A DNA stretch of 64,000 nt from Thermodesulfobacteriota bacterium (GTDB lineage Bacteria; Desulfobacterota; Desulfobacteria; Desulfobacterales; C00003060), in contig JAXHVD010000017.1 of assembly GCA_034189385.1 (NCBI GenBank), positions 1-64,000 of the forward strand. Reading direction: 5' to 3'. Made by a program: the position numbers and the translations under genes. Of the stretch, positions 10,346-25,207 are shown piece after piece. Below the pieces are notes generated by a model that saw nothing but the letters and a program-made list of their open reading frames with translations, did not search any database and was not told the origin of the DNA. Positions within the stretch are counted from its first letter, which is position 1. Every line of letters starts with the position of its first letter.

Positions 10346-11557
10346 TCAAAAACCAGTAAGGCTATTGGCCCAGGCCAAGGCATCCATGTGATGACCGGGC
10401 AGCTGTGCTTCGTCCAGACCTAAAGTGCCCGCTATCTCTGAAACCCCGTCCCAATCTCCTCTCTCGTAGCAGGCGACCAGTGCTAGGTAGTCTTTTAATT
10501 CCCCTGTGCCTTCCACTAGGGCGCCCTTAATCCTTTCAGACAGGGGCAGATGCCCCATGAGATGGGCCATTGAATCATCCAGGATGGCATCGATGAGTGA
10601 AAAGAGTCCGAGGGTGAAGAGTTCAGAAGGGTCTGCCCGGGAGGGGGTCGCCTTTGCTATTAGCTCACAGAATCTGGCCCTAGCAGTGGAGGCGCGAACC
10701 AGCTCCGCAGGCTTTTCTTTGCCCAGCATGGCCATGGCTATGAGGGAGAGAAACCGCCTGATGCCATTCTCTCCGAGCAAGGAAATGGCTTGTTTGATGG
10801 AAGAAATGTCGCTGACAATGCCGAAATAGGCTGAATTGATGTAACGTAGCAGCTTATAGGGGATGGCCACATCCCGCTTCATGATCTTTTCAACCTTTTC
10901 AAATCTAAAATCCCTCTTATTGACCTCCGCCATGATCTGAAGGAGATTCAGTTGGGTGCTTGAAATATCTTTTTCCTTGATTATCTCCGGTTTGCTAAAA
11001 AAGTAGCCCTGAAAATAGTCAAAGCCCATCTCAAGGGCCTTTTGAAATTCCTCATAGGTCTCTACCTTCTCAGCCAAATAATGGATGTTGCAGCCCGACA
11101 TCTTTTTCATATGGCCTGCCATTTGCTCAAAGGAGATGGCATTCAAGTCGAACTTGATAATATCTGCCAGACGGATCAGGGGTTTCAATTCTGACCTATA
11201 AAAAAAATCGTCGAGGGCAATGTGATAGCCTTGTCGGACAATCTCCTCAGAGATCGCGATGACCTCTTCTGTGGCTTCCACATCTTCTAAGATCTCCACA
11301 ACCAGCCTTTCATGAGGAAACATGAGCGGCACCTGCTTTATCAACAGATCCTTGGTAAAATTGATGAATGCCTTTTTCCTTCCTGCAATCTTCTCGATGC
11401 CGATCGTAATAAAGGTATTGACCAGGAGCTCGGACGTGGCAGTGTCTCCGTCTATGTCTGGGAAGTAGTTGGACATGCCGCCTCTGAAGAGAAGCTCATA
11501 TCCAAAAAGCCTTTTGTCCCTCCTAAAAATGGGCTGTCTTGCTACATATATATCCAT
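10346..11557 (-). CDS. EAL/HDOD domain protein (YuxH/PdeH-like)
   Basis: YVARQPIF, YELLFR, FINF, ALDDF, AEKVET, FQGYFFSKP followed by HDOD (GLFSLIDAIL); start at MDIYV. Confidence 0.9.
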   Translation of the reverse strand: MDIYVARQPIFRRDKRLFGYELLFRGGMSNYFPDIDGDTATSELLVNTFITIGIEKIAGRKKAFINFTKDLLIKQVPLMFPHERLVVEILEDVEATEEVIAISEEIVRQGYHIALDDFFYRSELKPLIRLADIIKFDLNAISFEQMAGHMKKMSGCNIHYLAEKVETYEEFQKALEMGFDYFQGYFFSKPEIIKEKDISSTQLNLLQIMAEVNKRDFRFEKVEKIMKRDVAIPYKLLRYINSAYFGIVSDISSIKQAISLLGENGIRRFLSLIAMAMLGKEKPAELVRASTARARFCELIAKATPSRADPSELFTLGLFSLIDAILDDSMAHLMGHLPLSERIKGALVEGTGELKDYLALVACYERGDWDGVSEIAGTLGLDEAQLPGHHMDALAWANSLTGF

Positions 11558-11974
11558 AAAGAGCCTTCTTGTTTCGGTTCCAGTGATGGATACTCTGTGT
11601 CTCTTAAAGGTCTCCCTTGATCCCACACCCCAGTGGAGCCCAAACAAGGCGATAGTCCCACCCAAGACTACTTTGAGCGGCCGTGGCAACGGGTTTTGCC
11701 AAAAAAATCTTCAAACAAACGGCAAAGATCTGGCGTTGAACTAAAAAGAAGTTGAGAATATACAGTATCATCTTCTTGCTGTTTGGAAACATACGAGGTT
11801 TTAATGAGAAACTCCCGATACTGTCAACTTTTTGGTGTAAATCCCTCTTGAGCGAGATTCACACAGAAGATTTTATACTACCAAAGTTCAAGGATAGTTC
11901 AAAAACCTGATAAAAGCAAACGAGAAGAGGTCTGGCAAAGGTCTCGAATTGCTCGTTTCAGTCTCCAGCCTGAA

Positions 11975-12628
11975 TCACGATTCCAAAGAGGTGATTCCTT
12001 TTCGGATGGCGTATTTCGTAAGCTCGGCAGTGGTGTGAATATCCAGCTTTCGCTTGATGTTTCGGCGATGGCACTCTACGGTCCTAATGCTCATGCCGAG
12101 GCAAGAAGCTATTTGCGTGGAGGTCTTCCCCTCGGCCACAAGCTGGAGGATATCCCGTTCCCTGCCTTTTGGGACAGGGGAAGACAACGGGTCTCCCCTT
12201 GACACCCGCCCTACATATTCCTCGACCAGAGTCTTTGATATGGCAGGGCTGATACAGGTCTCGCCAGCCACGACGGCGCGGACGGCGAGCGTCAACTCCT
12301 GGGCAGTACAATCTGTGGTCAGGTAGCCCGACGCGCCCGCCGTAAGCACCCCCCCTACGAACTTCCTATCCCTGTGCATGGACAAGATCAGGACCTTGAC
12401 AAGAGGACATAGGGTCTTAATGCGGCGGGTCGCGTCGATGCCGTCTCGGCTGTCTGTGGCGATATCCATGACCACGACGTCCGGGGTGAGTTCCTGGGCC
12501 AGTTTCACCGCGCTGTCCCCGTTAGCTACTTCAGCCACAATCTCCATCTGTTTTTCCTTCTCAAGCAAGGAACGGACAGCCTCGCGGAAAATCTTGTGGT
12601 CGTCTGACAGCAGAATCTTTATGCTCAT
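11975..12628 (-). CDS. NarL/FixJ-family response regulator (REC + LuxR HTH)
   Basis: SDDH, VVMDI, ILSMH, GKTSTQIA...SIRTVECHRRNIKRKL. Confidence 0.92.
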   Translation of the reverse strand: MSIKILLSDDHKIFREAVRSLLEKEKQMEIVAEVANGDSAVKLAQELTPDVVVMDIATDSRDGIDATRRIKTLCPLVKVLILSMHRDRKFVGGVLTAGASGYLTTDCTAQELTLAVRAVVAGETCISPAISKTLVEEYVGRVSRGDPLSSPVPKGRERDILQLVAEGKTSTQIASCLGMSIRTVECHRRNIKRKLDIHTTAELTKYAIRKGITSLES

Positions 12629-12648: not shown

Positions 12649-13383
12649 TTATCCGTGGCCCGTGAGGGGTGCCGCTAGGGTGACGCGAGTGCCGTGGCCT
12701 GGCCTGGAGTCCACCTTAAGGCAGCCCCCCAATGGCTGAAATTGCTCTTTGATCCCAAAAAGGCCATAACCGTCGGTCTTGCCCGCAGCGGAGATTGTCT
12801 CTTTTGGATCAAATCCCCTACCGTCATCTTCCACCTCAATGCAAATCTGATCCCCATCTCTTGTCATCGATACAGTGGCACTGCCAGCCCGAGCATGCTG
12901 GACTGTGTTTTTCAACAACTCTCGCACTGCCCGATACAACAGGACACGAAGGTCATCCCTTAAAGGCTTTGGCTTGCCGTCATCGCTAACACGGATTGCT
13001 ATTCCGTGCCGCTCCTCGGTCTGTTGGGTGAGCGACTCCACAGCCGGCACAAATCCCAACTCATAGAGAACGGGAGAGGCAATCTCAGAAATCAGCTGGC
13101 GGGTCTCCTGGATCGTCTCATCAATCAGTGCGATGACGTCGCAAGTCTTCTTGGCAGCCTCGCCAGAGGATGTGGCGGATTTGACGATTCCCAGATTTAT
13201 CTTGGCAATAGCCAAGTTCTGGATGATATGGTCATGGACTTCCACGGCAATGCGGTGGCGTTCCCGCTCTTCGGCCAAGGCCAATAACGACGTCAGGGAA
13301 CGCAGTTTTTGATAGATCAGGCGATCGTCCTCAGCCCCAATTTGGTCGGCGGTTCTCTGTTGAAGTCGTCTATGTGGTCTCAT
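12649..13383 (-). CDS. HisKA_3 sensor histidine kinase, no obvious input domain
   Basis: EERERHRIAVEVHD H-box, ELLKNTVQHA, EDDGRGFD, GYGLFGI, PGHGT. Confidence 0.9.
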   Translation of the reverse strand: MRPHRRLQQRTADQIGAEDDRLIYQKLRSLTSLLALAEERERHRIAVEVHDHIIQNLAIAKINLGIVKSATSSGEAAKKTCDVIALIDETIQETRQLISEIASPVLYELGFVPAVESLTQQTEERHGIAIRVSDDGKPKPLRDDLRVLLYRAVRELLKNTVQHARAGSATVSMTRDGDQICIEVEDDGRGFDPKETISAAGKTDGYGLFGIKEQFQPLGGCLKVDSRPGHGTRVTLAAPLTGHG

Positions 13384-13570
13384 GCCTTTTCCCGCGCCTT
13401 TCTCTGTCTGCCCCCCCGTGCTGCTCGGGGCCAGTGCTGGGGGTTACCTGTGCTCGGTCAAGCCGTGCCGGCAAAAGCGACCTTCCTAACAGTCTCACTT
13501 TATTTCGTCCCAGAAAACCTGGTCCTTTGGGCCAGGTCAGAGTAAACTGGCTTTGCCAAATATCGTTAAT

Positions 13571-13698
13571 AGTGCCTAAAGTTTTAAGTGCACTAACGTG
13601 CGCTAAAGTTAAGGAATTCTGCCAATTATATAAAAGAATGGAGCGAAGCGACTTCCACAAGTTTAGGCACTTTAGCTCACTTCAGGCACTTTGAACTT
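13571..13698. repeat. Short palindromic repeat patch (agtgcctaaagt / tttaggcact units)
   Basis: agtgcctaaagtt...gctaaagtt on the left, inverted tttaggcactttagctcacttcaggcacttt on the right. Confidence 0.5.
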
Positions 13699-13709
13699 GT
13701 CCAGTATTC

Positions 13710-13732
13710 AGAAAACAGCCCCTTTCAGGGGC
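13710..13732 (-). terminator. Rho-independent terminator (minus strand)
   Basis: Minus strand gcccct-gaa-aggggc followed by tgttttct. Confidence 0.6.
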
Positions 13733-13939
13733 AAATCAACGCCTGGTCCTTCGGGCCAGGATTCTTTACGTCTGAGGACAGGCCTTTAGGTGGCCGCCCT
13801 GTCTGGTGAACTGATTGTCTGTCCAATCTGCTCTCCCGTTGTGGCAATTCTCAGGTAGATGGTCCTCCAGTGCCCATGCCCCACTGCTTCAGGTCCCCAC
13901 GTGGGAGCGATGAGGGGGCAGGGCATAAGGCACAAAGTA
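13710..13939 (-). ncRNA. Candidate sigma54-dependent small RNA (~230 nt)
   Basis: Lies between a consensus sigma54 promoter (13950-13965) and a terminator; the only sizeable ORF (46 aa, 13786-13926) lacks an RBS. Confidence 0.45.
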
Positions 13940-13949
13940 TATTTAAAAA

Positions 13950-13965
13950 CGCAACAGCTATGCCA
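13950..13965 (-). promoter_or_regulatory. sigma54 (-24/-12) promoter
   Basis: Minus strand TGGCAT-AGCTG-TTGCG. Confidence 0.8.
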
Positions 13966-14041: not shown

Positions 14042-14070
14042 TTCTACTGTAACAAAATGTTACAGTAGAA
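14042..14070. promoter_or_regulatory. Perfect palindrome, candidate enhancer (UAS) or autoregulatory operator
   Basis: ttctactgtaaca-aaa-tgttacagtagaa, 13-bp arms, centred about 117 nt upstream of the predicted sigma54 start; related half-sites at 13989 and 14092. Confidence 0.7.
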
Positions 14071-14267
14071 GGCTTTTCGCGACTCTTTTGGTGTCACATT
14101 TTTACACACTTTCATGCCGGTCCTGGGTCGGAGTCAGGGATGACCGCTCCAGACTCCCTTCTTTGTCTGGAGTCCCGGTCGGGCAAGGATCATCCACGAA
14201 GGCCCACACAGGAAGGGGAAATACCCCTAGACAGGATCAGCTTTCTTTGGTATGAATACAAAGTATT

Positions 14268-15632
14268 ATGGGCTCTGCAAAGATCCTTCTGGTAGACGAT
14301 GATGAGGCCTTCCTAGAGCTTTTCGCTTTCATGGCGTCGGCCCCCCCCCTGGATATAGAGATCGTTCCTTGCCCATCTGCCCAAAAGGCCTTGGACCTCT
14401 TAAAGGAGGGGCCCATAGACCTGGTTGTTTCAGATGTGCAGATGCCCGGCATGACAGGGATCGAGCTTTTTCGCCAGGCCCAAGACCTCTACCCTGAGAT
14501 CCCTGTCATCCTGATGACCGCCTTCGGCTCCACGCAGGAGGCCATAGAAGCGGTCAAGGAAGGGGCCTTCCACTACTTTGAAAAGCCCATAAACGACAAG
14601 TTGGACCTCTTTTGGACGACCATTCGGGAGGCCTTGGCCAAGAGGGAGATGGCCAACCGACTGGCATCGCTTCAGAGAGAAAAGTCTCTTTGCGCGGAGA
14701 TGCCCTCGGACATCGTCGGTCAGTCTGAGGCCATCAAGGAGGTGGTCAGGTCGTTGACGGAAGTATCAAAGCTCCCGGTCACCGTCCTTATCCAGGGCGA
14801 AACAGGCACCGGCAAAGAGCTTGTGGCCAGGGCCATTCATCGGCTGAGCGAGAGGAAGGCGAAGCCCTTTTTTGCCGTGAGCTGCAACGAGTTTGCCGCA
14901 GGCATCTTGGAAAGTGAGTTGTTCGGTCACGAAAGGGGGGCCTTTACGGGCGCCATCGGTCGAAAGCGGGGTCTTTTTGAACTGGCCCACAAGGGAACCC
15001 TTTTTTTGGATGAGATTGGAGAGGCCCCCCCTTTTTTTCAGTCCAAGCTTTTGAGGGTGGTGGAAAGCAAGACCTTTCTGCGCGTCGGGGGAACCTTTCC
15101 CATCCACTCGGACTTTCGCTTGCTCACGGCTACCAACCGGGACCTGGAGAAAGAGGTGGCCCAAGGGGGCTTTCGCCAGGATCTTTTTCACCGGCTGAAT
15201 CTTTACACCATTCAAATGCCGCCCTTACGGAACAGAAAAGAAGACATCCCGCTCATTGCAGAATACTATCTAAAGAGATTTGCCCTGGCCTATCGCCGTC
15301 CCATCTCAAGTATCTCCACGAACGCCTTGCTCTATCTCAGGGATTACGATTGGCCGGGCAATGTCCGTGAGCTCATCAACGTGGTGGAACGGGCGGTGAT
15401 CACCTGCAAAGAAGAGATGATCACCACCAAAGACTTCCCCTTTGAGGCGGGCGAATACCGAGAGACTTCTGATCTGAACCTAAGGGATGTTGAAAAACTC
15501 TGTATCAGGATGGCCCTCACGCGGACGGGGAACAACAAGTCCCAGGCCGCTGAGCTTCTGGGCATCACCCGCAAAACCCTTATTGAGAAGGCAAGGAGCT
15601 TTGGATTAGATGAGACGGCAGATCATGGATAG
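14268..15632 (+). CDS. NtrC-family sigma54-dependent response regulator
   Basis: REC (LVDDD, SDVQMP, FEKP), GETGTGKE, GAFTGA, LFLDEI, WPGNVREL, Fis-type HTH. Confidence 0.95.
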   Translation: MGSAKILLVDDDEAFLELFAFMASAPPLDIEIVPCPSAQKALDLLKEGPIDLVVSDVQMPGMTGIELFRQAQDLYPEIPVILMTAFGSTQEAIEAVKEGAFHYFEKPINDKLDLFWTTIREALAKREMANRLASLQREKSLCAEMPSDIVGQSEAIKEVVRSLTEVSKLPVTVLIQGETGTGKELVARAIHRLSERKAKPFFAVSCNEFAAGILESELFGHERGAFTGAIGRKRGLFELAHKGTLFLDEIGEAPPFFQSKLLRVVESKTFLRVGGTFPIHSDFRLLTATNRDLEKEVAQGGFRQDLFHRLNLYTIQMPPLRNRKEDIPLIAEYYLKRFALAYRRPISSISTNALLYLRDYDWPGNVRELINVVERAVITCKEEMITTKDFPFEAGEYRETSDLNLRDVEKLCIRMALTRTGNNKSQAAELLGITRKTLIEKARSFGLDETADHG

Positions 15633-17457
15633 GGTGTGTATTTTTTGTGTGTGCCTGTTGGCCCTTTCTTCTTCTCCTGTTTGGGCCCTGGAAGGCGATG
15701 GGCCCAGCCAGGCCTACCGGCTGGAAGAGGTGGTGGTGACAGCCACCCGTGTGGAAACCCCTGAAGAAGAGGTGGCGGCAAATGTAACGGTCGTCACAAG
15801 CGATGACATCAAAAAGATGCCCGTTTCCAGTGTGGGCGAGGTGCTCCAATACGTGCCCGACACCTATGTGGAGTTTAATGGCGGCCTGGGGAGCCAGGCC
15901 ACGGCCACGATCCAGGGCTCGCAGCTCCACCAGGTGGCCGTCTATCAGGACGGCGTTCCCCTGAACCAGTTGGCCAATCCCCTCACTGACCTTTCCTATG
16001 TCCCTGTGGATATGATCGACCGGATCGAGGTCTATAAAGGGGCGGCTTCCTCTGCCTGGGGGTCTGCCTTGGGCGGCGTGATCAACATCATCACCAAAGA
16101 ACCGGATCCCAAGAAACCCTTTGAAGGCGACTTAAGAAGCTCCTACGGGGAGCATGCCACCTTCAAAAACCGGGCCACCGTCAGTGGCAGCGGGGGCCGT
16201 TTGGGCTGCCTCCTTTCTATGACCCATGAGCAGAGCGACGGTTTCATGACACATTCGGAGTATGACCAGTTGGCGCTCTATGGCAAGATCAACTATGAAC
16301 TGGGTGAGACAAGCCGCCTGAACCTGGTGTACAGCTACGACAGAGGGACCAATAGCGATCCCATGCCATATGAGCCTGACTTCTGGGATGACATCTACCG
16401 CAAACGGATCTATCAACGGCTCCTCTTTGAGACCACCCTTGCCGATGGTCTGGACCTGACCCTTGAGGGCCGGCATCATCGATTCGTGAGCATCATCGAG
16501 GATGTGTATAGCCACTACAGGGAGCTCTATCACGATTACGAGGATGAGCTCTTTGGCGCGAGCGCCCGCGTGAGTCACCACGTCCATGATTGGAACAGGT
16601 TCAATCTCGGATTTGATGGGGATTGGGGCACCTATGATTTTCTCACTCCATTCGTAGATTATGACGCCAGAGAGGAAAACTGGGCCCTCTATGCCAATGA
16701 CACCCTGAGCCTTGGGGATTTCTCTTTGAACGTGGGCGTCCGGTACGATGAGCATAGCGATTTTGGCTCTGAACTCAGCCCGTCCGCCGGGCTGGTTTAT
16801 CGTGTCTTGGGAGAAAAAGCCCTTATCCGAGGCCAGGTTTCCAAGGGCTTTTCAGCCCCTCCTGCCGTGTGGCGGGACATACCTGTCTATGGAAACGAGG
16901 ACCTCGAGCCCGAGGTGGCCATCAACTATCAAGGTGGGGTTGAGGCCAGCCCTTTTCCGTTCCTGAGGCTGGAGTTGAACGTCTTTCGGGCAAATGTGGA
17001 CGATCTCATCCGCTACGACTGGGATGCCGAGAAGTTTGAAAACATCGCAGAGGTGACGCGGGAAGGGATAGAAGGAAGCATCTCTTTAAGCTTTGATATG
17101 GGACTGACCCTCTCCTTTGGCGGCAGCTTCATTGATGTCGTGGACGACGAAACCGATGAAGTGATTAAAGACATCCCAAGACGGCTCTATACCTGCTCGG
17201 CCTCCTATGCCAATGATTGGATGAGCCACTCTGTGGTGGGAAGTTATGTGTATCACAATTCTTCCTACCCTGAGACAAAGGACAAGGTCTTTCTCTTTGA
17301 CTATCTCCTCAAGCTCAAGCTTCCCTCTTCCGATCGATTTGACGAGCTCACCCTCTTTGCGGCCGTGCACAACCTTGGCAACACGAACTACCTCTATCGT
17401 GCGGTCTGGCCCCAACCTGGCCGCTGGTTTGAGGGCGGGATAAGCGTTGCGTTCTAG
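15625..17457 (+). CDS. TonB-dependent outer membrane receptor
   Basis: Signal peptide, EEVVVTATR TonB box, RIEVYKGAASSAWG...GGVINIITK plug, C-terminal Phe; overlaps the regulator stop codon. Confidence 0.93.
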   Translation: MDRVCIFCVCLLALSSSPVWALEGDGPSQAYRLEEVVVTATRVETPEEEVAANVTVVTSDDIKKMPVSSVGEVLQYVPDTYVEFNGGLGSQATATIQGSQLHQVAVYQDGVPLNQLANPLTDLSYVPVDMIDRIEVYKGAASSAWGSALGGVINIITKEPDPKKPFEGDLRSSYGEHATFKNRATVSGSGGRLGCLLSMTHEQSDGFMTHSEYDQLALYGKINYELGETSRLNLVYSYDRGTNSDPMPYEPDFWDDIYRKRIYQRLLFETTLADGLDLTLEGRHHRFVSIIEDVYSHYRELYHDYEDELFGASARVSHHVHDWNRFNLGFDGDWGTYDFLTPFVDYDAREENWALYANDTLSLGDFSLNVGVRYDEHSDFGSELSPSAGLVYRVLGEKALIRGQVSKGFSAPPAVWRDIPVYGNEDLEPEVAINYQGGVEASPFPFLRLELNVFRANVDDLIRYDWDAEKFENIAEVTREGIEGSISLSFDMGLTLSFGGSFIDVVDDETDEVIKDIPRRLYTCSASYANDWMSHSVVGSYVYHNSSYPETKDKVFLFDYLLKLKLPSSDRFDELTLFAAVHNLGNTNYLYRAVWPQPGRWFEGGISVAF

Positions 17458-17489
17458 CATCCCTGTTCAGATAGCCTTTCCCAGTTGAA

Positions 17490-17655
17490 TCCCTCAGGAT
17501 CCATTGCCCGCGGCTTGCCGCGTGTCCGTCATTCCGGCCCACGCCGGAATCCAGAAAACCAGACTGGATGCCGGATCAAGTCCGGCATGACATATGATAC
17601 CCCGCTGCTTGCGGCGGGGTAGTTTATTCCCTCAGGATCCATTGCCCGCGGCTTG
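17490..17655. repeat. REP-like composite: palindromic elements between 28-bp direct repeats
   Basis: tccctcaggatccattgcccgcggcttg at 17490-17517 and 17628-17655; gtcattccggc...ccggcatgac (17528-17591) and ccccgctgcttgcggcgggg hairpin inside. Confidence 0.7.
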
Positions 17656-17724
17656 ACTTCGACGAAGAATGTGACTAAGGCTCGCTCGAATGCAATGAGA
17701 AAGTTGGTTTCTTCAATTTTCGCG

Positions 17725-18909
17725 TTAGTAATACTTCCTGGTCGTTATAACGCCTGCTGATACCATAAGCGCTGAGGCCGTAAAGAACAGGGATTGGGGA
17801 CTCCATATTCTCAGCACCATAGCGCTCCCGAATATGGAACCCAAATAGCAAAGTCCCCTGTAGGTGGATAACACAGAAATGGTCTTCCCTATGCACGCCT
17901 TTGGGCTATATTTCTGGATAAGGCTCTCCAAGAAGACATGCATGAATGTGAATCCGCAGCCAAGCAGAGACATGAGCAGGGCGATCTGGACCAAAGTCCT
18001 TAGTTGAGACAGGGTGGCTATGGCCCCCGCCAGGAGCAGAAAGTTGAAGGAAAGCAGGGTCCGACGTCGGACGGCTGACCCGTATCTGGGCAACAGAAAG
18101 GTAGACACACAGGCACCTGCCTGGAATGCGGACAGCAATAGTCCCCAATCAGCAATATCTTTTCCCAACTGAGTCTTGCAGAGGACAGGCACGCCAAGAT
18201 ACAACATGCCTCCACCTGCAAGGACAAATCCAAAGGTGGCGAAACATGCCTTGAGCTTGGGGTTGCCCCTGAAAGGCTCCATGAAATCAACAACCAACGG
18301 CCGAAGCCCGTGCCTGCGAAACGGGCCATAAACTGATCTTTCGGTCCCTGAGACAGTGTCGGGAAGTCTCCAAACAAGAAAAGCTGAAAGTGTGAACAGA
18401 AGCCCACCGAACCCCAAAGACATTGCCGGGCCGGTCTCCAAGACAATGCAACTGATAAGCAAAGGGCCCAATATGCGGCCGGCCAGAGATACCCTCTCGT
18501 TGACGGCGTTGAAGGGGATGAGTTCGTCTTTGGGTATGAGCACGGGTACAAGGGAAAGGCGCCCTATATAGAAAAACAAAGAACCGATAATGAGAAGAAG
18601 ATAGACAGTAAAGACAAGGTAGCGGGATGATACAAAGACAAGGGCGCCTACCAACAGGCACTTGCCACCGCTTACCAAGAATAGCCATGTCTTTGCCCCA
18701 ACGCGGTCAATCCATAGACCTGCCAGGGGGCTTAAACAGACGGAAGGGGCCTGTTCAATCAGACACATGGCCAGTAGATTTGACAGGCCTTTCTCTCCCT
18801 TGAAGAACAGCAGGTCCAGCAGGGTGAAACCTACAAACTGGTTTCCCAGATCTGACAGAAGGTCGGCCAATATGATTAATGCTTTGGTGGGAATGCCGGG
18901 TCTTTTCAT
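17725..18909 (-). CDS. MFS transporter (drug/peptide exporter-like)
   Basis: About 12 hydrophobic segments, AGLWIDRVG motif A; ATGA overlap with the radical SAM gene. Confidence 0.88.
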   Translation of the reverse strand: MKRPGIPTKALIILADLLSDLGNQFVGFTLLDLLFFKGEKGLSNLLAMCLIEQAPSVCLSPLAGLWIDRVGAKTWLFLVSGGKCLLVGALVFVSSRYLVFTVYLLLIIGSLFFYIGRLSLVPVLIPKDELIPFNAVNERVSLAGRILGPLLISCIVLETGPAMSLGFGGLLFTLSAFLVWRLPDTVSGTERSVYGPFRRHGLRPLVVDFMEPFRGNPKLKACFATFGFVLAGGGMLYLGVPVLCKTQLGKDIADWGLLLSAFQAGACVSTFLLPRYGSAVRRRTLLSFNFLLLAGAIATLSQLRTLVQIALLMSLLGCGFTFMHVFLESLIQKYSPKACIGKTISVLSTYRGLCYLGSIFGSAMVLRIWSPQSLFFTASALMVSAGVITTRKYY

Positions 18910-20222
18910 GCTGCATCTTTAAGGCCCGTGAACGAATGCTCAAGGCATGTGGCTTCGGCCTTCTCTCGGATGTATTCTTCCAGGAGAAGACGATAGGTGT
19001 CATAATGACAGTCGGCCCCGCCAAAATCATTCTGGTTGGTGAGGGCCTGAAGACGGCAGCCACCCATGCAGGTGGGGAGCAGTTCGCACTCTTTTAGGCA
19101 CCTATCTGGCAAGGCTCTCTTGAGAAGCTGGGACTCTGCAACGAAATCAATACCAGTGTTAACATGGCCGTAGGCCATCTCGGAACCTTGAAGGGATGGG
19201 CAGGGAATGATGGAACCGTCCGTGTCAAAGACGAATCGGGACCGAAAGTCGGCCATGCAGGTGTTGAGGGGGGCCTCACTATTTATGGGATAGCCCCGTT
19301 GGCCAGCCTCTCGGTTCAGGTAGAGAAATATGTTGGGATCGCCCATTCCTGAATTATAGAGATTCCTTCTTCTCCTCGGCAGGATTGGAGTGAAGGCGAT
19401 GTTATCAATGCCGATGTTTCTTTCAGCCATATCGTCAAGCATCTCTGGAACCCTCAAATAATCAAGGGCTCCACTGTCATACTGGCACTCCACGCTGATG
19501 GGGACCATGCCAGAAATAGCTTGCAGGTTTTCCATAATCAACTCGTAGGTCTTGCCGTTATGTTTCGAAGGCCTCAGGGCATCATGAACAGGGGCAGGCC
19601 CGGCCAGGCTGACGCGGATGCCGGTGAGCCCTACCTTCTTCATGTCCGAGATGACAGCTGGCCTCACGAGCGTGCCATTAGTCGTTATGACAAAGCCGTA
19701 GTCAATGCCCTTCCCCATGCAGTAAAAGAAACGTCTCGCAACGCTTTCCATGATGATCTTTGAATTAAGCAGCGGTTCACCACCCAGGTAGTCATCCTCC
19801 ACCTTTTGGGGGCCCTTTTCCTCCATGGTCTCAATATAGAACTGATCCATGGCTAAGGCTGTCCCGCTGGACATGTCTTTGGCTTCAGGGTCAAGGATGC
19901 AGTAGCGACATCGGTTGTTACACTTCCGCGTGACCAGAACCTTGGATTTTAGCGTACTGAAATGATGGACGTGTTGTTGTTTCCAGTTTTCAAACACCGT
20001 GGTTTCGTCCACACCGTCTTTCACCAGGAATCCCTGCTCATGAAGCAGATCGGTGGTAGCAGAATCGGCCGGTGCTATTGGATCGCTGAGTGCATAGGCC
20101 CAAGTCTTTTCCAGTATGAGAATAAAGGCTCCTGTCATGGTCTGGTAGAGGGCGACGATCTCCTGCCCTTTGTTCTCAACTGGAACAGCCACAGTGAATC
20201 TGGATTTTTTGAGAGAAAACAT
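18906..20222 (-). CDS. Radical SAM/SPASM-domain peptide maturase
   Basis: CNNRCRYC, LGGEPLL, TTNG, SPASM cysteines (CMAD...PCP...CLKECELLPTCMGGC...DC); AAGGAG before ATG 20222 (ORF track starts at 20279). Confidence 0.9.
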   Translation of the reverse strand: MFSLKKSRFTVAVPVENKGQEIVALYQTMTGAFILILEKTWAYALSDPIAPADSATTDLLHEQGFLVKDGVDETTVFENWKQQHVHHFSTLKSKVLVTRKCNNRCRYCILDPEAKDMSSGTALAMDQFYIETMEEKGPQKVEDDYLGGEPLLNSKIIMESVARRFFYCMGKGIDYGFVITTNGTLVRPAVISDMKKVGLTGIRVSLAGPAPVHDALRPSKHNGKTYELIMENLQAISGMVPISVECQYDSGALDYLRVPEMLDDMAERNIGIDNIAFTPILPRRRRNLYNSGMGDPNIFLYLNREAGQRGYPINSEAPLNTCMADFRSRFVFDTDGSIIPCPSLQGSEMAYGHVNTGIDFVAESQLLKRALPDRCLKECELLPTCMGGCRLQALTNQNDFGGADCHYDTYRLLLEEYIREKAEATCLEHSFTGLKDAA

Positions 20223-20304
20223 GATGTAGTCTCCTTTATTGAGATGTCTTAGGTAAGCGGAGCTGTCCTGCGCAGACAAGTCTCACCTCGTTTCAGGAAT
20301 TACA

Positions 20305-20329
20305 TCCCCCTCCCACGAGGGGAGGGGGA
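20305..20329. terminator. Strong stem-loop between precursor and maturase
   Basis: tccccctccc-acgag-gggaggggga 10-bp stem, no clear U-tract. Confidence 0.5.
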
Positions 20330-20396
20330 ATGCCTGAACTCCTGGGTGTTCAAGGCTGTCTCTCCAAGAATCGCTCAGCTCAAAGTTGTACGTTAG

Positions 20397-20486
20397 CTAG
20401 TTCCGGGCGTTTGGACCAATAGCACAGCAACTCAGCGCTGACTTCTTGACTCTGTATGTCCCCTTCCTAATGACGGTAACTTTCAT
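20397..20486 (-). CDS. Putative RiPP precursor peptide, 29 aa: MKVTVIRKGTYRVKKSALSCCAIGPNARN
   Basis: Hand-translated; AAGGAGGT RBS at 20493-20500; directly upstream of the rSAM/SPASM gene on the same strand; Cys-Cys in the C-terminal half. Confidence 0.85.
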   Translation of the reverse strand: MKVTVIRKGTYRVKKSALSCCAIGPNARN

Positions 20487-21045
20487 CACTCTACCTCCTT
20501 TCTCAAAAGATTTATTGCCATTGCGCGCTTGGCTGGTGACCAATCAACATCACGATGTATGCCATGATTGGCATTTCATCAAAAAAACCCTATTTAGTTG
20601 ATATTGCTTATGCGAATGGCATGAATCAGGTGATGGGCCAGCCTTTCACGGGATCGAAAGTTGGAACTTCGGAAGGTAAGTTCGAAAAGGCGTGCTACAA
20701 GTTCAGACTTGTCGGGATGCGATCGGGCCAAGTGATGGCCTGCAGCTGCCTTTCAGAGAAGGACCCTTAAAGGGCGGGATGCCAGTTCGCAGCACGTTTG
20801 AGGGCGCCGGCCTGACATTATACTATTTTGTGCCAGCAAAGCGATTAACAACGCCTGAAGCGGGTGACTGGACTGAACAAGAATCAACTTCTTTCAGGCG
20901 TTACATTTTCAACGCTCCAGGCTCTGGATCGTTTTACTCACCCGGTTTCAGCAGGCAAAGGCCGTTATCAGCAAGACGATACCCAAGGAGTATTGACGGG
21001 GAACAGAGGATAGCACGAGATGGATTATCTAAACTTGCCCACGAG

Positions 21046-22620
21046 CTAATTCGGATTCAAGGAGACATGTCTCAGGTTGTAGATTCCTTCGTATGTTAGA
21101 GAGAATGGCAGGGTCAGTCTAAACCGTTTAGACATAATATTGATGGCCTTCTTATGGAATAAAAAAGTACCGGGTTGGAGCGAGCTGACTAAGGCGTCTG
21201 TCTGATAAAGGAGCTGCTTCTGTTTTAGCGGGTCCTTTTCATCAATGGCCTCACAGAGAAGATGAGTCACCCCGGGATGGTCGAAACAACCGGCGTCAGA
21301 CCCTTTGTTAAGAGACATACACCATTGATTTCTTAAGTACTCGGGATTACGATAAGCACCCCTAAAATCCGTTATTACAGCCTGAAACGAAGTGTTTGCA
21401 ACGTAGCGCTTTTTAAGCTCTAAGAACGGAAGCGATTCTACTTGCGCGATGATGCCAAGATCATTCAGGCAAAGTCTTATGTATTCAGCCACCTTCTTTT
21501 CGATTTGGCCTTGTTCAAAGACGAGGATAGTGAATTCAAAACGTTTTCCGTCCTTAACAAGATGGCGACCTGCCTCATCATAAGACCAGCCCGCTTCTTT
21601 CAGGAGCTTCAATCCCTGTTGCGGTTCATACCGGATGGGCATGACTTCAGGGTTGTGAAAAGGAGAATCCACACCCATGGGGCCCTCGGCAACAATTCCA
21701 AGGCCTTTAAGGATTTTTTCTACGATGTATTTCCTATCAATGGCAAGGGAGAGAGCCATCCGAGCACTTGTAGCCGAGAAGAGGGGATCCGTTGTATTGT
21801 AAAGGAGGATTGTGTAATGAGGCAGAGGGTAGGTTTCAAAGTAATACCTTTTTTCATACTGATGGGTGATTTCATAGTTTTTTGGAGAGATCTCATGGCC
21901 TACGTCGGTCTTACCTGAAAGGAGTCTTGTCCACGTTTGTTCTTTGTCCGGCTGAAAATGGAAGATAACCCCGTCCAATGCAGGGCGGCCTCGAAAGTAG
22001 TCTTCATTGGCTACAAGGCCCACTTCGCTGCCGCCTTTTCTATATTGAAATCTGAACGGACCAGAGCCAACAGGGTGATTATAATAATCTATCTTACCAT
22101 TGTTCGATTGGTGGACAACCGGCATGTCCCACGTCTTAAAAAGAAAGTCTGGTTCGTCTCTCGTCAGAACCATACTGAGAGCTGTATCCGACAAGAGGGA
22201 AATCTTTTCAACCAAAGATAAGAGAGAAGGATGATGCTTCTTAAGCACCGTCTGAAACGAATACTGCACATCCTTTGAAGTCACAGGTTCTTTGTTGTGG
22301 AATAGAGCATTTTCTCGGAGGTGGATGGTCCAGGTAAGACCCTTTGAATCATAGCTCCACTTGGAGGCGAGATCCGCCTCTATTTTTCCATGGCAGTTCG
22401 GAACAACTAGAAAACCGTATAGTAAAGGGAAGACGTGGTTTGAACCGGAGAATTCAAATCGTGCAGGATCCAAAGAGTCAAAAGGGGCGTTGACATCATA
22501 GTGAAGTATATTCTCGTTTCCAGGTGTTTCCACTGTAGTAAGAACACCTGGTCCTTCGCAGGAGACACAAAGGGTGGCAAGGAGAACGGCAATCACGGCC
22601 CATAGGGGGAATCTGTGCAT
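21046..22620 (-). CDS. OppA/DppA-family (SBP family 5) peptide-binding lipoprotein
   Basis: Lipobox-like LCVSC, SLDP, WTIHLR..FH..PVTSKDVQYSF, PVGSGPF, RMALSLAIDR; no permease or ATPase adjacent; alternative start 22704. Confidence 0.88.
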   Translation of the reverse strand: MHRFPLWAVIAVLLATLCVSCEGPGVLTTVETPGNENILHYDVNAPFDSLDPARFEFSGSNHVFPLLYGFLVVPNCHGKIEADLASKWSYDSKGLTWTIHLRENALFHNKEPVTSKDVQYSFQTVLKKHHPSLLSLVEKISLLSDTALSMVLTRDEPDFLFKTWDMPVVHQSNNGKIDYYNHPVGSGPFRFQYRKGGSEVGLVANEDYFRGRPALDGVIFHFQPDKEQTWTRLLSGKTDVGHEISPKNYEITHQYEKRYYFETYPLPHYTILLYNTTDPLFSATSARMALSLAIDRKYIVEKILKGLGIVAEGPMGVDSPFHNPEVMPIRYEPQQGLKLLKEAGWSYDEAGRHLVKDGKRFEFTILVFEQGQIEKKVAEYIRLCLNDLGIIAQVESLPFLELKKRYVANTSFQAVITDFRGAYRNPEYLRNQWCMSLNKGSDAGCFDHPGVTHLLCEAIDEKDPLKQKQLLYQTDALVSSLQPGTFLFHKKAINIMSKRFRLTLPFSLTYEGIYNLRHVSLNPN

Positions 22621-22913
22621 TGATGACAAGAATACCTCAGAGAGTTTGTATCTGGATTGATTGGCCTTTTTCCCATTATGCACACAGATATCGTTTTTTT
22701 TCAAGACTGAGAGGTGCCTGCTGTTCCGTGTCGGCCTGGTGCGCCACGTTCTCGTCTCGATTGGTCGCTATGAGGCGTTCACGGGGTCAGGGGGTGAGGG
22801 CTTGAGCGGATGGTCGAAGGTGGCGAATAGGGCTTCCCTTTACAAAGGGGAAAAAACCTCCTATGTTGCGGGCCAACATGCCCCTTGACGCTCTTCTTAT
22901 ATAGCGGCCTGTC

Positions 22914-24656
22914 ATGAAAAAGAGGAAAAGACTATTTCACAGGTATCTCTTGTTTGTATTGCCCCTGGTGATCCTGTCGGTAATGATCACAGGGGGCGCC
23001 CTTTCCTGGATCTGCTATCGACACTTCCAAGAGACGATCAACAGCAGTTACAAAAATATCATTAGAGGCTCTGCCGGCGAGATCGGCCTTTTTATGAAAG
23101 ATGCCCAAAAGGGACTGGAAGGGCTAGCCTGGGTGATCGCTGCTACCAAACTGGACCCCTGGCAAAAAGAGATGGCCCTTGCAGCCTTTCATCATACGGC
23201 AGAAGAGTTCATGTTCCTCTCCCTGGTCTCCCCGGAAGGGGAAGATCTCCTGACTAGCGGCTGGCAAGGAAACGACGTGGCCTATGTTCGGTCCGAAATA
23301 TTCCAAGAAGCGCTGCAAGGCGAGAGAGGCATTTCCGATGTGATGGTGGCACAGAGGGACATCCCCTACGTCTATTTGGCCGTTCCCATATTACACCTGG
23401 GCGCAGTCAAGGAGGTCCTATGGGGTCAACTGAATCTGAAGTCCGTATGGGACGTGTTAGAGGGGATCAAGGTGGGCGCCACGGGCCGGGTGTCTATCTT
23501 GGATTTGTCGGGGCGCTTGATCGGAGACGTGGAAATGTCGAGGGTGGTGAAGCCGACTTGGCCTCAACGGCAGGAGATTCTTGAAGCGTTGCAAGACACT
23601 CATGAGCCCCTGGCATGGATGGAAGAGGAAGACCACTCGAGTTTTTATTGCCTTGGCTACCGAATTCCCAATCTAGATTGGATCATTGTCCTGAGGCAAC
23701 GTTGCGCGGAGACCTATGCCTATTTGTACAAGAGCATCCTTTGGGGGGCCCTGATCACAGCGGCCATCTGCCTCGCAGCGGTCCTTGCAGGGTGGAATCG
23801 GGTGGAGCACTTCTTGGCGCCCATCCAGACCCTTCACGGCCAGGTGCAAAGGATAGGTGGGGGTGATCTCGACCAGAGGGTCTCTGTTGACACGGGCGAT
23901 GAGATCGGCGATCTGGCCGAAGCCTTCAATGATATGACCGATTCGCTCAAGAGACTCATTGAGCGGGAAGTGGCCTCGGCCAAGGAGCTGGCCCATGCCA
24001 AGAACCTGGCTGTCCTGGGCTCGACTTCGAGCAAGGTCACCCATGAGGTGGGAAATCTCCTAAACAATGTGGGCCTGACCCTTTCCATTCTTAAGAATGA
24101 AGGACTCAGCCCAGGAGGAGAAAACGCCCTTCACATATTGGAGAAAGACTCGGCCCGCGTGAAAGAGTTCATCGCCAATTTTCTGCAATTTGCGAAAACA
24201 CCGGAGCTGCACCTGGAGAGGAGACCCTTGGAAGGGATACTGCGCGAAGTCCTCTTTCTCTACCAAGGAGGAAGCGAGAAAGGGGCCATCGAACTGGAGC
24301 TGGATTGGCCGCCCGACCTGCCCCCTGTCCTTATGGATCAGGGGCTCATGTACCAGGTCTTTCACAATCTGGTAAAGAACGGCATGGAGGCCATGGGCGA
24401 TTCAGGCAAGATCGAGATCACAGGAAGGGTTGACGGAGAACATCTGGTTGTTGTCTTAAAAGACACGGGGCCGGGCATGGGGCCGGAGGTTCTGGAGCAG
24501 ATCTTTGATCCCTTTTACACCACCAAAGGGAAAAAAGGCACGGGCCTCGGCCTTTCCATCGTGAAGACTATTGTACAGGCCCATCGCGGCACCATCGAAT
24601 GCCAGAGTCAGTTGGGCAGCGGAACGACCTTTATCGTTCGTCTGCCATTGCAGTAG
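22914..24656 (+). CDS. Membrane sensor histidine kinase (Cache-HAMP-HisKA-HATPase)
   Basis: Two TM helices, DEIGDLAEAFNDM HAMP, THEVGN H-box, NLVKNG, DTGPG, FYTTK, GTGLGL. Confidence 0.93.
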   Translation: MKKRKRLFHRYLLFVLPLVILSVMITGGALSWICYRHFQETINSSYKNIIRGSAGEIGLFMKDAQKGLEGLAWVIAATKLDPWQKEMALAAFHHTAEEFMFLSLVSPEGEDLLTSGWQGNDVAYVRSEIFQEALQGERGISDVMVAQRDIPYVYLAVPILHLGAVKEVLWGQLNLKSVWDVLEGIKVGATGRVSILDLSGRLIGDVEMSRVVKPTWPQRQEILEALQDTHEPLAWMEEEDHSSFYCLGYRIPNLDWIIVLRQRCAETYAYLYKSILWGALITAAICLAAVLAGWNRVEHFLAPIQTLHGQVQRIGGGDLDQRVSVDTGDEIGDLAEAFNDMTDSLKRLIEREVASAKELAHAKNLAVLGSTSSKVTHEVGNLLNNVGLTLSILKNEGLSPGGENALHILEKDSARVKEFIANFLQFAKTPELHLERRPLEGILREVLFLYQGGSEKGAIELELDWPPDLPPVLMDQGLMYQVFHNLVKNGMEAMGDSGKIEITGRVDGEHLVVVLKDTGPGMGPEVLEQIFDPFYTTKGKKGTGLGLSIVKTIVQAHRGTIECQSQLGSGTTFIVRLPLQ

Positions 24657-24835
24657 CGCTCCACCGACTCATGGGGCAGATTGTAGAAATAAGAATTCAC
24701 CGCGCAGAGTCTATTTTTCTAGATCATCTTCCGACTAGTTGTAGCTCATGAAGGCAAGTCAAGTGAACAATCTTCAAGTGAATAGGTGTGGTTTCAAAGG
24801 GTGCAAGGGTTCAAGGTGCCGAGGGTTCAAGTGAA

Positions 24836-25207
24836 ATGCTGAAGAATTACAAAGAGTTGACTGTCTGGCAAAAGTCATATGAGCTTTGTCTGAAAGTATA
24901 TAGAATAACGGCACAATTCCCAAATGAAGAAAGATACGGTCTCACCTCACAGATAAGAAGATCTGCTGTCTCTATTCCTTCTAATATCGCAGAAGGATAT
25001 GGAAGAAAGACAATCGTTGATTATATTAGGATGCTTTACATCTCTTACGGTTCCGTTTGTGAACTGGAAACCCAGATATTGTTAGCTGGAGATTTAGGCT
25101 ACATTGAAAAAGGCACATTGGGTAGAGCAAAAAAGGACGTTGCAGAAACCGAAAGAATGTTAAAGGCGTTGATAAAATCGTTAGAAAACAAATCCTTGAA
25201 TCCTTGA
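24836..25207 (+). CDS. Four-helix bundle protein (23S rRNA intervening-sequence protein family)
   Basis: YKELTVWQKS, FPNEERYGLTSQIRRSAVSIPSNIAEG, GSVCELETQ. Confidence 0.92.
   Translation: MLKNYKELTVWQKSYELCLKVYRITAQFPNEERYGLTSQIRRSAVSIPSNIAEGYGRKTIVDYIRMLYISYGSVCELETQILLAGDLGYIEKGTLGRAKKDVAETERMLKALIKSLENKSLNP

Follow-up and report, generated by a model that had tools for sequence, protein, structure and literature searches.

How could a bacterium with two membranes send and read a peptide signal? Textbooks associate signalling by peptides with Gram-positive bacteria, and its scarcity among diderms is commonly put down to the outer membrane. The question is raised by positions 14268..24656 of a 64,000-nucleotide stretch of contig JAXHVD010000017.1 (assembly GCA_034189385.1; the whole stretch is called the window here) from a Thermodesulfobacteriota bacterium of the order Desulfobacterales. 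A first-pass annotation had read seven genes in this block as a circuit that makes, exports, re-imports and answers to a peptide that ribosomes synthesize and that is modified post-translationally (RiPP), and all seven are borne out, at the stated positions, by the open reading frame (ORF) list and by searches against protein families. Comparison with related genomes shows that the cassette is real and conserved, with signalling its likely role, and we give slightly better than even chances to the fuller statement that it is a peptide signal-and-response system of Desulfobacterota, sister to the geopeptide system. Its parts are the following (MFS, major facilitator superfamily; RRE, RiPP recognition element; SAM, S-adenosylmethionine).

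14268..15632, + strand: NtrC-type sigma-54 response regulator, 454 aa (Pfam)
15610..17457, + strand: TonB-dependent receptor, 615 aa (ORF list, Pfam)
17725..18909, - strand: MFS transporter, 394 aa, candidate exporter (Pfam, NCBIfam)
18906..20222, - strand: RRE/radical SAM/SPASM maturase, 438 aa (NCBIfam, alignment, model)
20290..20340, - strand: stem-loop in the precursor-maturase gap (folding energy)
20397..20486, - strand: precursor peptide, 29 aa, MKVTVIRKGTYRVKKSALSCCAIGPNARN (family in 22/22 loci)
20549..20564, - strand: sigma-54 -24/-12 box of the precursor operon (pattern scan, alignment)
20658..20710, no strand: palindrome type A, three copies, consensus AAGTTCGAACTT (motif comparison)
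21046..22620, - strand: family-5 solute-binding lipoprotein, 524 aa, candidate co-receptor (Pfam, alignment)
22624..22722, - strand: remnant of a receiver-less sigma-54 activator, last 33 codons (similarity to a relative's activator)
22914..24656, + strand: sensor kinase, 580 aa (Pfam)

The maturase stop and the MFS start overlap, and regulator and receptor overlap by 23 nt. The start of the binding protein is corrected to ATG 22620 (lipobox Cys21) from TTG 22704, since the stretch 22624-22722 belongs, in frame, to the end of an eighth gene that has been deleted, and ATG 20222 is the more likely start of the maturase since the alignment of relatives begins there. The host genome carries RpoN and two TonB_C genes above cut-off.

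Do the seven genes belong together? The maturase clade occurs in 17 of the 401 genomes of the order and in three of 401 of the phylum, the window's own genome included. The sensor half of the kinase is found in 23 of the 401 genomes of the order, among them all 17 that are maturase-positive, and a receptor orthologue in 19, namely 16 of the same 17 (the locus of the other, G770, is cut by a contig end) together with G014, G051 and G134. Among the 384 maturase-negative genomes a kinase match is seen in six and a receptor match in three; the kinase stands alone in G648 and G650, with a weak match in G660, and in G014, G051 and G134, all 98-99% complete, the genes for regulator, kinase, binding protein and receptor are present while a maturase of the clade is not, a true geopeptide-type locus lying elsewhere in G051 and G134. 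G629 has two maturases and two kinases. All seven genes lie on one contig in six relatives, and since G182, G093, G783, G682 and G819 share a single order on one strand (regulator, receptor, binding protein, precursor, maturase, MFS, kinase), the window is a rearranged copy. The pairwise distances of the six proteins rise and fall together: with 9-14 genomes for each pair, rho ranges from 0.54 to 0.90 and is greatest for binding protein and kinase. The synteny search that the first-pass annotation had called for thus places the genes together, by the shared contigs and by presence and absence; because they co-occur across genomes chance neighbours can be rejected, and on this comparative evidence the seven genes form one system.

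What does this system make? The precursor gene, of 29 codons behind a strong ribosome-binding site, encodes a basic leader, Cys-Cys and an Arg at the second-last position, preceded by AAGGAGGT. A precursor stands upstream of the maturase in all 22 loci having sequence there (G681, where a contig edge ends the sequence, was left out of the count), and base differences by codon position 1/2/3 amount to 196/164/434 (45 pairs, 10 loci), which together argue that the precursor is more than chance. Cys-Cys is invariant in the family, an invariance that is partly by construction since the final pattern demanded Cys-Cys and Arg, the first listings being unfiltered; the leader is an aliphatic run followed by Gly-x-aromatic, and the five to eight residues after Cys-Cys vary between loci, close relatives included. 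The Cys codons of the 22 precursors are all TGC or TGT, and a selenopeptide is rejected, as none of them holds a UGA. Against TIGR04229 (cut-off 30 bits) the precursor gave no match at E 10, the model being non-discriminating: the precursors of three true geopeptide loci were missed by it as well (best 6.9 bits). Back-translation searches for relatives recovered one and two loci only. Downstream, the stretch 20281-20396 folds at -41 kcal/mol, and a hairpin lies within 70 nt of the precursor stop in 21 relatives (z -2.1 to -6.8), that of the window being further out.

The maturase bears the marks of a radical SAM/SPASM RiPP enzyme, with CxxxCxxC (Cys 101, 105 and 108), seven conserved SPASM cysteines (322, 341, 375, 379, 385, 389 and 405) and an N-terminal RRE. 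Its earlier assignment to the SPASM enzymes is upheld by these cysteines and by TIGR04085 (42 bits, cut-off 27), although the SPASM model of Pfam is not matched. The proposed test against the geopeptide model TIGR04280 went the other way: at 205.9 bits against a cut-off of 400 the protein is no member, five members of its clade scoring 177-214 bits and seven true members 476-571. Identity within the clade is 44-87%, and the next clade, at 25-31%, passes the TIGR04280 cut-off; by scores and alignments the window's clade is sister to the geopeptide maturase, not inside it. TIGR03974 gives 52 bits for a cut-off of 425. The named relatives are Desulfobacterales and unclassified Deltaproteobacteria, with Desulfobacteraceae bacterium Eth-SRB2 among the carriers, and E 1e-60 is reached by 207 maturase-like proteins among 6078 candidates. 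The predicted structure (predicted local distance difference test, pLDDT, 92.6), whose N-terminus of three strands and then helices is RRE-like, finds its best fold match in CteB 5WHY (E 6.5e-19, TM 0.64); with TigE, anSME and SuiB close behind it, the chemistry cannot be read from the fold.

The candidate exporter matches MFS_1 and, weakly, MFS_3 (Pfam), and lies below cut-off for TIGR00900 (71 bits) and EntS (28 bits); the loci of G672 and G721 have no MFS gene. The plug of the TonB receptor begins at residue 52, and a FecA-type transducer is rejected since the receptor has no N-terminal signalling extension. The best NCBIfam match of the receptor is BtuB-like (173 bits, cut-off 600).

How would a returning peptide be read? 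The kinase combines double Cache, HAMP, HisKA (His377) and HATPase domains. The best solved relative of the binding-protein profile is Bacillus subtilis AppA (233 bits), nickel binders scoring 170-190. That this binding protein is an orphan, as first proposed, was borne out: the block has no permease or ATPase gene, and of 28 related loci 27 are without a permease, the one within 2.5 kb of a binding protein being on the opposite strand, convergent and not conserved. An ordinary Opp/Dpp/Nik ATP-binding cassette importer is rejected for a binding protein without a permease, a distant permease in trans being possible. The modelled complex of binding protein and kinase sensor scored 0.47, the best of three controls 0.00, with runs agreeing in at least 81% of contacts and partner pLDDT of at least 85. 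The mark used for such complexes was reached by 116 of 157 solved pairs and two of 215 mismatched pairs, but at scores up to 0.60 by 18 solved pairs and both mismatches; the model lends weak support to a contact between the binding protein and the kinase sensor domain. Compared with the closest relative, L054, the binding protein is 63% and the kinase 74% identical as against 83-90% for the other four proteins, and the peptide cores of the two also differ.

Further copies of these receiving parts occur. Two solo binding-protein copies lie outside the window in its own genome (G000:C52:533-2155 and G000:C10:641-3832), adjoining an integrase-like ORF with similar flanks, one of them split by an insertion element; they are 74-75% identical to the binding protein of L054 and about 60% to the window's own. 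Extra convergent receptor/binding-protein pairs stand off the main locus in G014 (L106:8141-11767) and in G093 (L114:6927-10374, its binding protein in two pieces). In two genomes of one genus a YcaO-TPR gene adjoins the kinase (L036:14431-16161, L093:6417-8183); this is probably genomic context, though YcaO enzymes modify peptides.

On what does the regulator act? Its motifs are intact (receiver D56, GAFTGA, Walker A/B, Fis-type helix-turn-helix), its recognition helix is conserved in 14 of 14 aligned orthologues, and the following features lie to its left.

14048..14064, no strand: palindrome type B, TGTAAC-N5-GTTACA, perfect (motif scan)
13950..13965, - strand: canonical sigma-54 box, facing away from the regulator (pattern scan)
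12649..13383, - strand: HisKA_3 kinase, likely output gene (Pfam; downstream of the leftward box)
11975..12628, - strand: NarL-type regulator, likely output gene (Pfam; downstream of the leftward box)
10346..11689: EAL/HDOD gene, after the NarL-type regulator and HisKA_3 kinase (Pfam)

The perfect type B palindrome, of which 0.02 are expected by chance, occurs once in the window's genome, and a weaker second site lies at about 14091-14107. Of 13 regions read ahead of the regulator, 11 contain the site with up to three mismatches, and nine have an outward-facing sigma-54 box. The window's leftward box is 81 nt from type B, and those of relatives 75-83 nt, a gap that the accessible part of PMC4641369 gives as the usual range for Desulfovibrio activators. 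Type B also precedes the precursor in G783, G182, G125, G093 and G034 (0-4 mismatches). Because the recognition helix is conserved and the site occurs upstream of the regulator, we infer that type B is the site of the response regulator.

The gene divergent from the regulator is a receiver or kinase in relatives, and the HisKA_3 kinase with the NarL regulator in the window; the regulator's targets are likely to be other signalling genes, not uptake genes. In L034, L036, L037 and L093 the divergent target encodes receiver proteins of 200-235 aa (36-49% identical) with an unnamed C-terminal part; an atlas look-up of a divergent gene gave a plain receiver. A 270-bp repeat (13499-13769), with four further copies at 97-98% in the genome, lies between the leftward box and the HisKA_3 kinase and may disturb the output; a remnant receiver gene was looked for in that interval and not found. 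An HDOD-like gene stands opposite the regulator in relative L116, and a cyclic di-GMP-related output via the EAL/HDOD protein is possible.

What, then, drives the precursor? A sigma-54 box stands before it in 19 of 22 loci compared with 56 of 1820 background upstream regions, the window's box having GA instead of GC at -12. The type A triple, 104-145 bp upstream of this box, is unique in the genome as a triple, single copies in the window being at chance level (6 vs 6.4 expected), and it lies ahead of the precursor in the genus of the window and in some further families. A second activator, a sigma-54 AAA+ protein with no receiver and a winged-helix C-terminus, was found in G085, G173, G485 and G629 and in loci L054, L075-77, L079, L083 and L098, and was not found in any of the five type B genomes (91-99% complete); G672, which has no promoter, is likewise without it. 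The association of type A with this activator (12 vs 5) has a Fisher p of 1.6e-4, a value overstated by the seven of these 12 that belong to a single genus; the test did not include L055, G672, G417, G729 or the second G629 locus. We infer that type A is the site of the second activator. The model of its C-terminal domain from a relative resembles the winged helix of Fur (pLDDT 86, Z 9.7, root-mean-square deviation 2.7, 92 aligned), a match given by the wider fold search, Foldseek having none at E 0.001 and an atlas look-up (0.77) adding nothing.

The window's remnant of such an activator is 85% identical over 33 aa to that of a relative (E 1e-12) and shares the reading frame of the binding protein, and the assembly, 90% complete, has no second copy of the activator C-terminus. 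A contig from run X1, which may be the source sample, crosses the remnant's junction without differences. As the promoter, the type A sites and all three genes for synthesis are still intact, the activator may have been lost recently, or its role may be taken by another one. Because the activator that matches the precursor promoter is deleted, the feedback loop looks open in the window's organism, which is a probable listener that senses more than it makes. The make-and-respond loop first proposed for the block thus divides, the regulator sites at the precursor in five relatives agreeing with it and the window's own precursor sites matching a deleted activator. A sigma-70 scan found 12 sites against 7.6 +/- 2.9 expected, the best of the region inside the remnant, a hint at why the remnant was retained.

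Loss of the making arm recurs, to judge from assemblies and reading frames. Run X2, from a different study and about 95-97% identical, has a contig that links 20875 with 20543 and so lacks the type A sites and the box, and a second contig of similar depth that runs from the receptor end into a diverged copy of the binding protein; this run does not cover the MFS and most of the maturase, and contig joints alone, not this gap, were used. The G819 maturase is frameshifted near residue 390, and three of the 11 activator genes read are out of frame, in both directions, at a T8-T9 run in Walker B.

L075:3973, L076:1605 and L077 (window's genus): T-run frameshifts in Walker B of the second activator

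Such a frameshift may be a phase switch, decay or an assembly error. Between kinase and second activator, L054:5395-6467 holds an XRE regulator and an IrrE-like gene that are not in the window.

In the window, a 144-bp palindromic repeat with many genomic copies (17485-17628) lies between the convergent receptor and MFS genes, 17461-17720 giving 27 BLAST matches in the host genome, and after the kinase an ORF of 139 aa (24788-25207), which we take to resemble a four-helix-bundle protein, has repeat-rich flanks and is not at this place in L054.

How would the parts work as a signalling system? The sigma-54 promoter would drive precursor, maturase and MFS; the RRE would bind the basic leader and the radical SAM/SPASM domain would modify the Cys-Cys core, most likely with thioether cross-links; some protease would cut off the leader, and MFS with some outer-membrane channel would export a product of about 8-12 residues. 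The TonB receptor would carry the peptide into the periplasm, where the family-5 lipoprotein would bind it and switch the Cache kinase; the kinase would phosphorylate the NtrC-type regulator, which would bind type B and fire the divergent sigma-54 promoter before other signalling genes. Two wirings are envisaged, five genomes with type B at the precursor, a direct positive feedback, and twelve with type A and the second activator; a self-amplifying loop is supported by these sites for the five relatives, not for the window's organism.

Several points weigh against such a system. The distance correlation and tree congruence may be explicable by shared descent, and the related genomes are not independent, as the single genus behind seven of the 12 type A genomes illustrates. 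Motif-to-protein assignments rest on co-occurrence only; two of 13 regions have no type B site before the regulator, and in three of 22 loci no sigma-54 box was detected ahead of the precursor. Since the genome is 90% complete, a gene for the second activator could be present but missing from the assembly. For the binding protein NCBIfam gives a nickel binder as its top label (134.5 bits against 600), the MFS is weakly EntS-like, and siderophore piracy, too, typically shows genomes that only receive and receptors to spare. A survey of 104 flanking ORFs in 28 loci found neither a conserved peptidase nor a conserved exit through the outer membrane near any locus, and the MFS alone would leave the peptide in the periplasm beside its own receptor.

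The first-pass annotation had noted that no protease or immunity gene is visible, and had taken this to fit a signal or metallophore better than a toxin. Both absences hold: the block has no peptidase gene and none is conserved in the flanking survey, nor is any immunity-type gene. Of the pair left over, the signal is now favoured by the signalling-gene output and the missing inner-membrane import route, the metallophore being weakened only. That rival would be a methanobactin-like RiPP metallophore with a sensing arm, its Cys-Cys core turned into a metal-binding group such as a thio-oxazole, with the compound exported and returning loaded via the TonB receptor while binding protein and kinase report uptake success; as a whole we consider this reading unlikely. 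Methanobactin operons do combine similar parts (PMC3621798, in its accessible portion), SbtM makes a thio(seleno)oxazole from Cys/Sec (PMC9204691, likewise), nickel binders come second to AppA among solved relatives and first in NCBIfam, and piracy would explain the receiver-only genomes. However, the flanking survey has no conserved inner-membrane import route, reductase or metal gene, the inferred targets of the regulator are signalling genes, a Fur-box-like pattern has no match ahead of the regulator-receptor operon or of the precursor, and a core that varies after Cys-Cys between close relatives would be unusual for a chelator.

A sensing unit for some other environmental ligand, with no link to the RiPP operon beyond regulating it or being carried along with it, strikes us as less probable again. 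It would account for the four receiving genes that occur without synthesis genes and for a type A lineage whose regulator has no site at the precursor promoter, but all 17 maturase-positive genomes have the kinase, the duplication in G629 is joint, and the geopeptide sister keeps receptor, binding protein and kinase by its precursor with a different binding-protein family, a parallel layout that argues for a tie between peptide and sensor. The weakest candidate, a narrow-range antagonistic peptide entering via the TonB receptor, with binding protein and kinase for warning and sequestration, we hold improbable: thioether RiPPs are often antibacterial (PMC8326336, in the part available), spare binding proteins, two beside an integrase-like ORF, could sequester foreign variants and core and receptor diverge together, yet producers keep the import receptor by the synthesis genes in 16 of 17 genomes, non-producers also keep this receptor, which a target cell should lose, and the flanking ORFs hold no conserved immunity-type gene.

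The peptide signal is therefore favoured, because there is no route to the cytoplasm, the output consists of signalling genes, feedback sites stand in five genomes and core and receptor diverge together. A bolder form of it, which we put forward tentatively and hold more doubtful than the signalling system itself, is strain-specific peptide communication among anaerobic Gram-negatives, in which a radical-SAM-cyclised peptide with a variable core has its dedicated TonB receptor and is read by the binding protein-kinase pair, the population comprising producers, switchable producers and pure listeners that gather additional receptors for the peptides of other strains; the switchable producers may owe their state to the slippery T-run in the dedicated winged-helix sigma-54 activator. 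If the signalling reading is true, the cassette is a concrete route for peptide signals across the outer membrane in sulfate-reducer relatives of sediments, and the geopeptide family, named in databases with no function, gains a testable role. The system further offers 22 natural substrates of a new maturase clade, each having a cognate binding protein, two predicted operator sites, a type of sigma-54 activator with a Fur-like winged helix for study, and, in the repeated loss of the making arm with the sensing arm kept, a natural case for producer/listener evolution.

How does the cassette compare with known systems? No published description of it was found in titles and the starts of abstracts, a scope outside which most subscription papers lie, nor any literature under geopeptide or TIGR04280; one of the two supplementary files of PMC10288494 did not contain the leader motif or model names, and the portion of PMC10553843 available makes no mention of radical SAM, TonB, quorum or RiPP. 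Methanobactin operons unite a Cys precursor with genes for an exporter and a TonB transporter, sometimes also with one for a periplasmic binding protein (PMC3621798), whereas the window has a radical SAM enzyme in place of MbnBC, MFS in place of MATE and two-component sigma-54 control in place of the FecIR-like MbnIR; its receptor, unlike that control scheme, has no N-terminal signalling extension, and neither MbnB/MbnC nor FecIR-like control was found in the block or the 104 flanking ORFs. The selenobiotic pair SbtA/SbtM comes from the same broad bacterial group and also has a radical SAM/SPASM maturase acting on Cys, SbtM of Geobacter-type bacteria converting Cys/Sec to thio(seleno)oxazole (PMC9204691, partial text), but the Sec codon in a GGUG-type motif by which an SbtA-type precursor would be recognized is missing, all 22 window-family precursors using TGC/TGT, and no SbtM-family model is among the 25 best NCBIfam matches listed for the maturase. 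CteB (PDB 5WHY, 5WGG), of the ranthipeptide/SCIFF type, shares RRE, radical SAM and a seven-Cys SPASM at 16-17% identity. SCIFFs are listed as clostridial quorum-sensing peptides (PMC8326336, in part, citing Chen 2020); they have six Cys, in contrast to the two adjacent Cys, diderm host and TonB import of the window.

The geopeptide system (TIGR04229/TIGR04280, a hypothetical equivalog) is the nearest family to the window's maturase. Precursors of both have a basic start, an aliphatic run and then Gly, Cys-Cys and a short tail, and in both a short Cys-Cys precursor lies directly upstream of an RRE/radical SAM/SPASM gene. Seven of seven true geopeptide loci tested stand behind a TonB receptor and nearly all opposite a binding protein and kinase, with receptor, precursor and maturase in a row facing a PF04392 binding protein and a hybrid kinase. 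The differences are as clear: Cx3C in the window's SPASM domain against Cx2C (25-31% identity, separate clades), a family-5 binding protein and Cache kinase with a separate sigma-54 regulator against PF04392 and the hybrid kinase, and a dedicated full MFS, unlike the geopeptide system. A strict sigma-54 box precedes the precursor in one of 15 geopeptide-type loci, the box being present in 19 of 22 loci of the window's family. By gene layout and family assignment, the same logic is kept with two unrelated binding proteins.

On the sensing side, CBP is a family 5 protein, and AioX-AioS-AioR is a binding protein-kinase system in which AioR is a sigma-54 regulator. A periplasmic binding protein controls a membrane kinase in CBP-ChiS and LuxP-LuxQ of Vibrio (bioRxiv 2020.01.10.902320, available in part). 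Unlike these, the window's system would have as its ligand a modified peptide that a gene encodes and a TonB receptor brings in, and by analogy the cassette may work like a co-receptor circuit of the LuxP/LuxQ or CBP/ChiS type that is fed by a RiPP.

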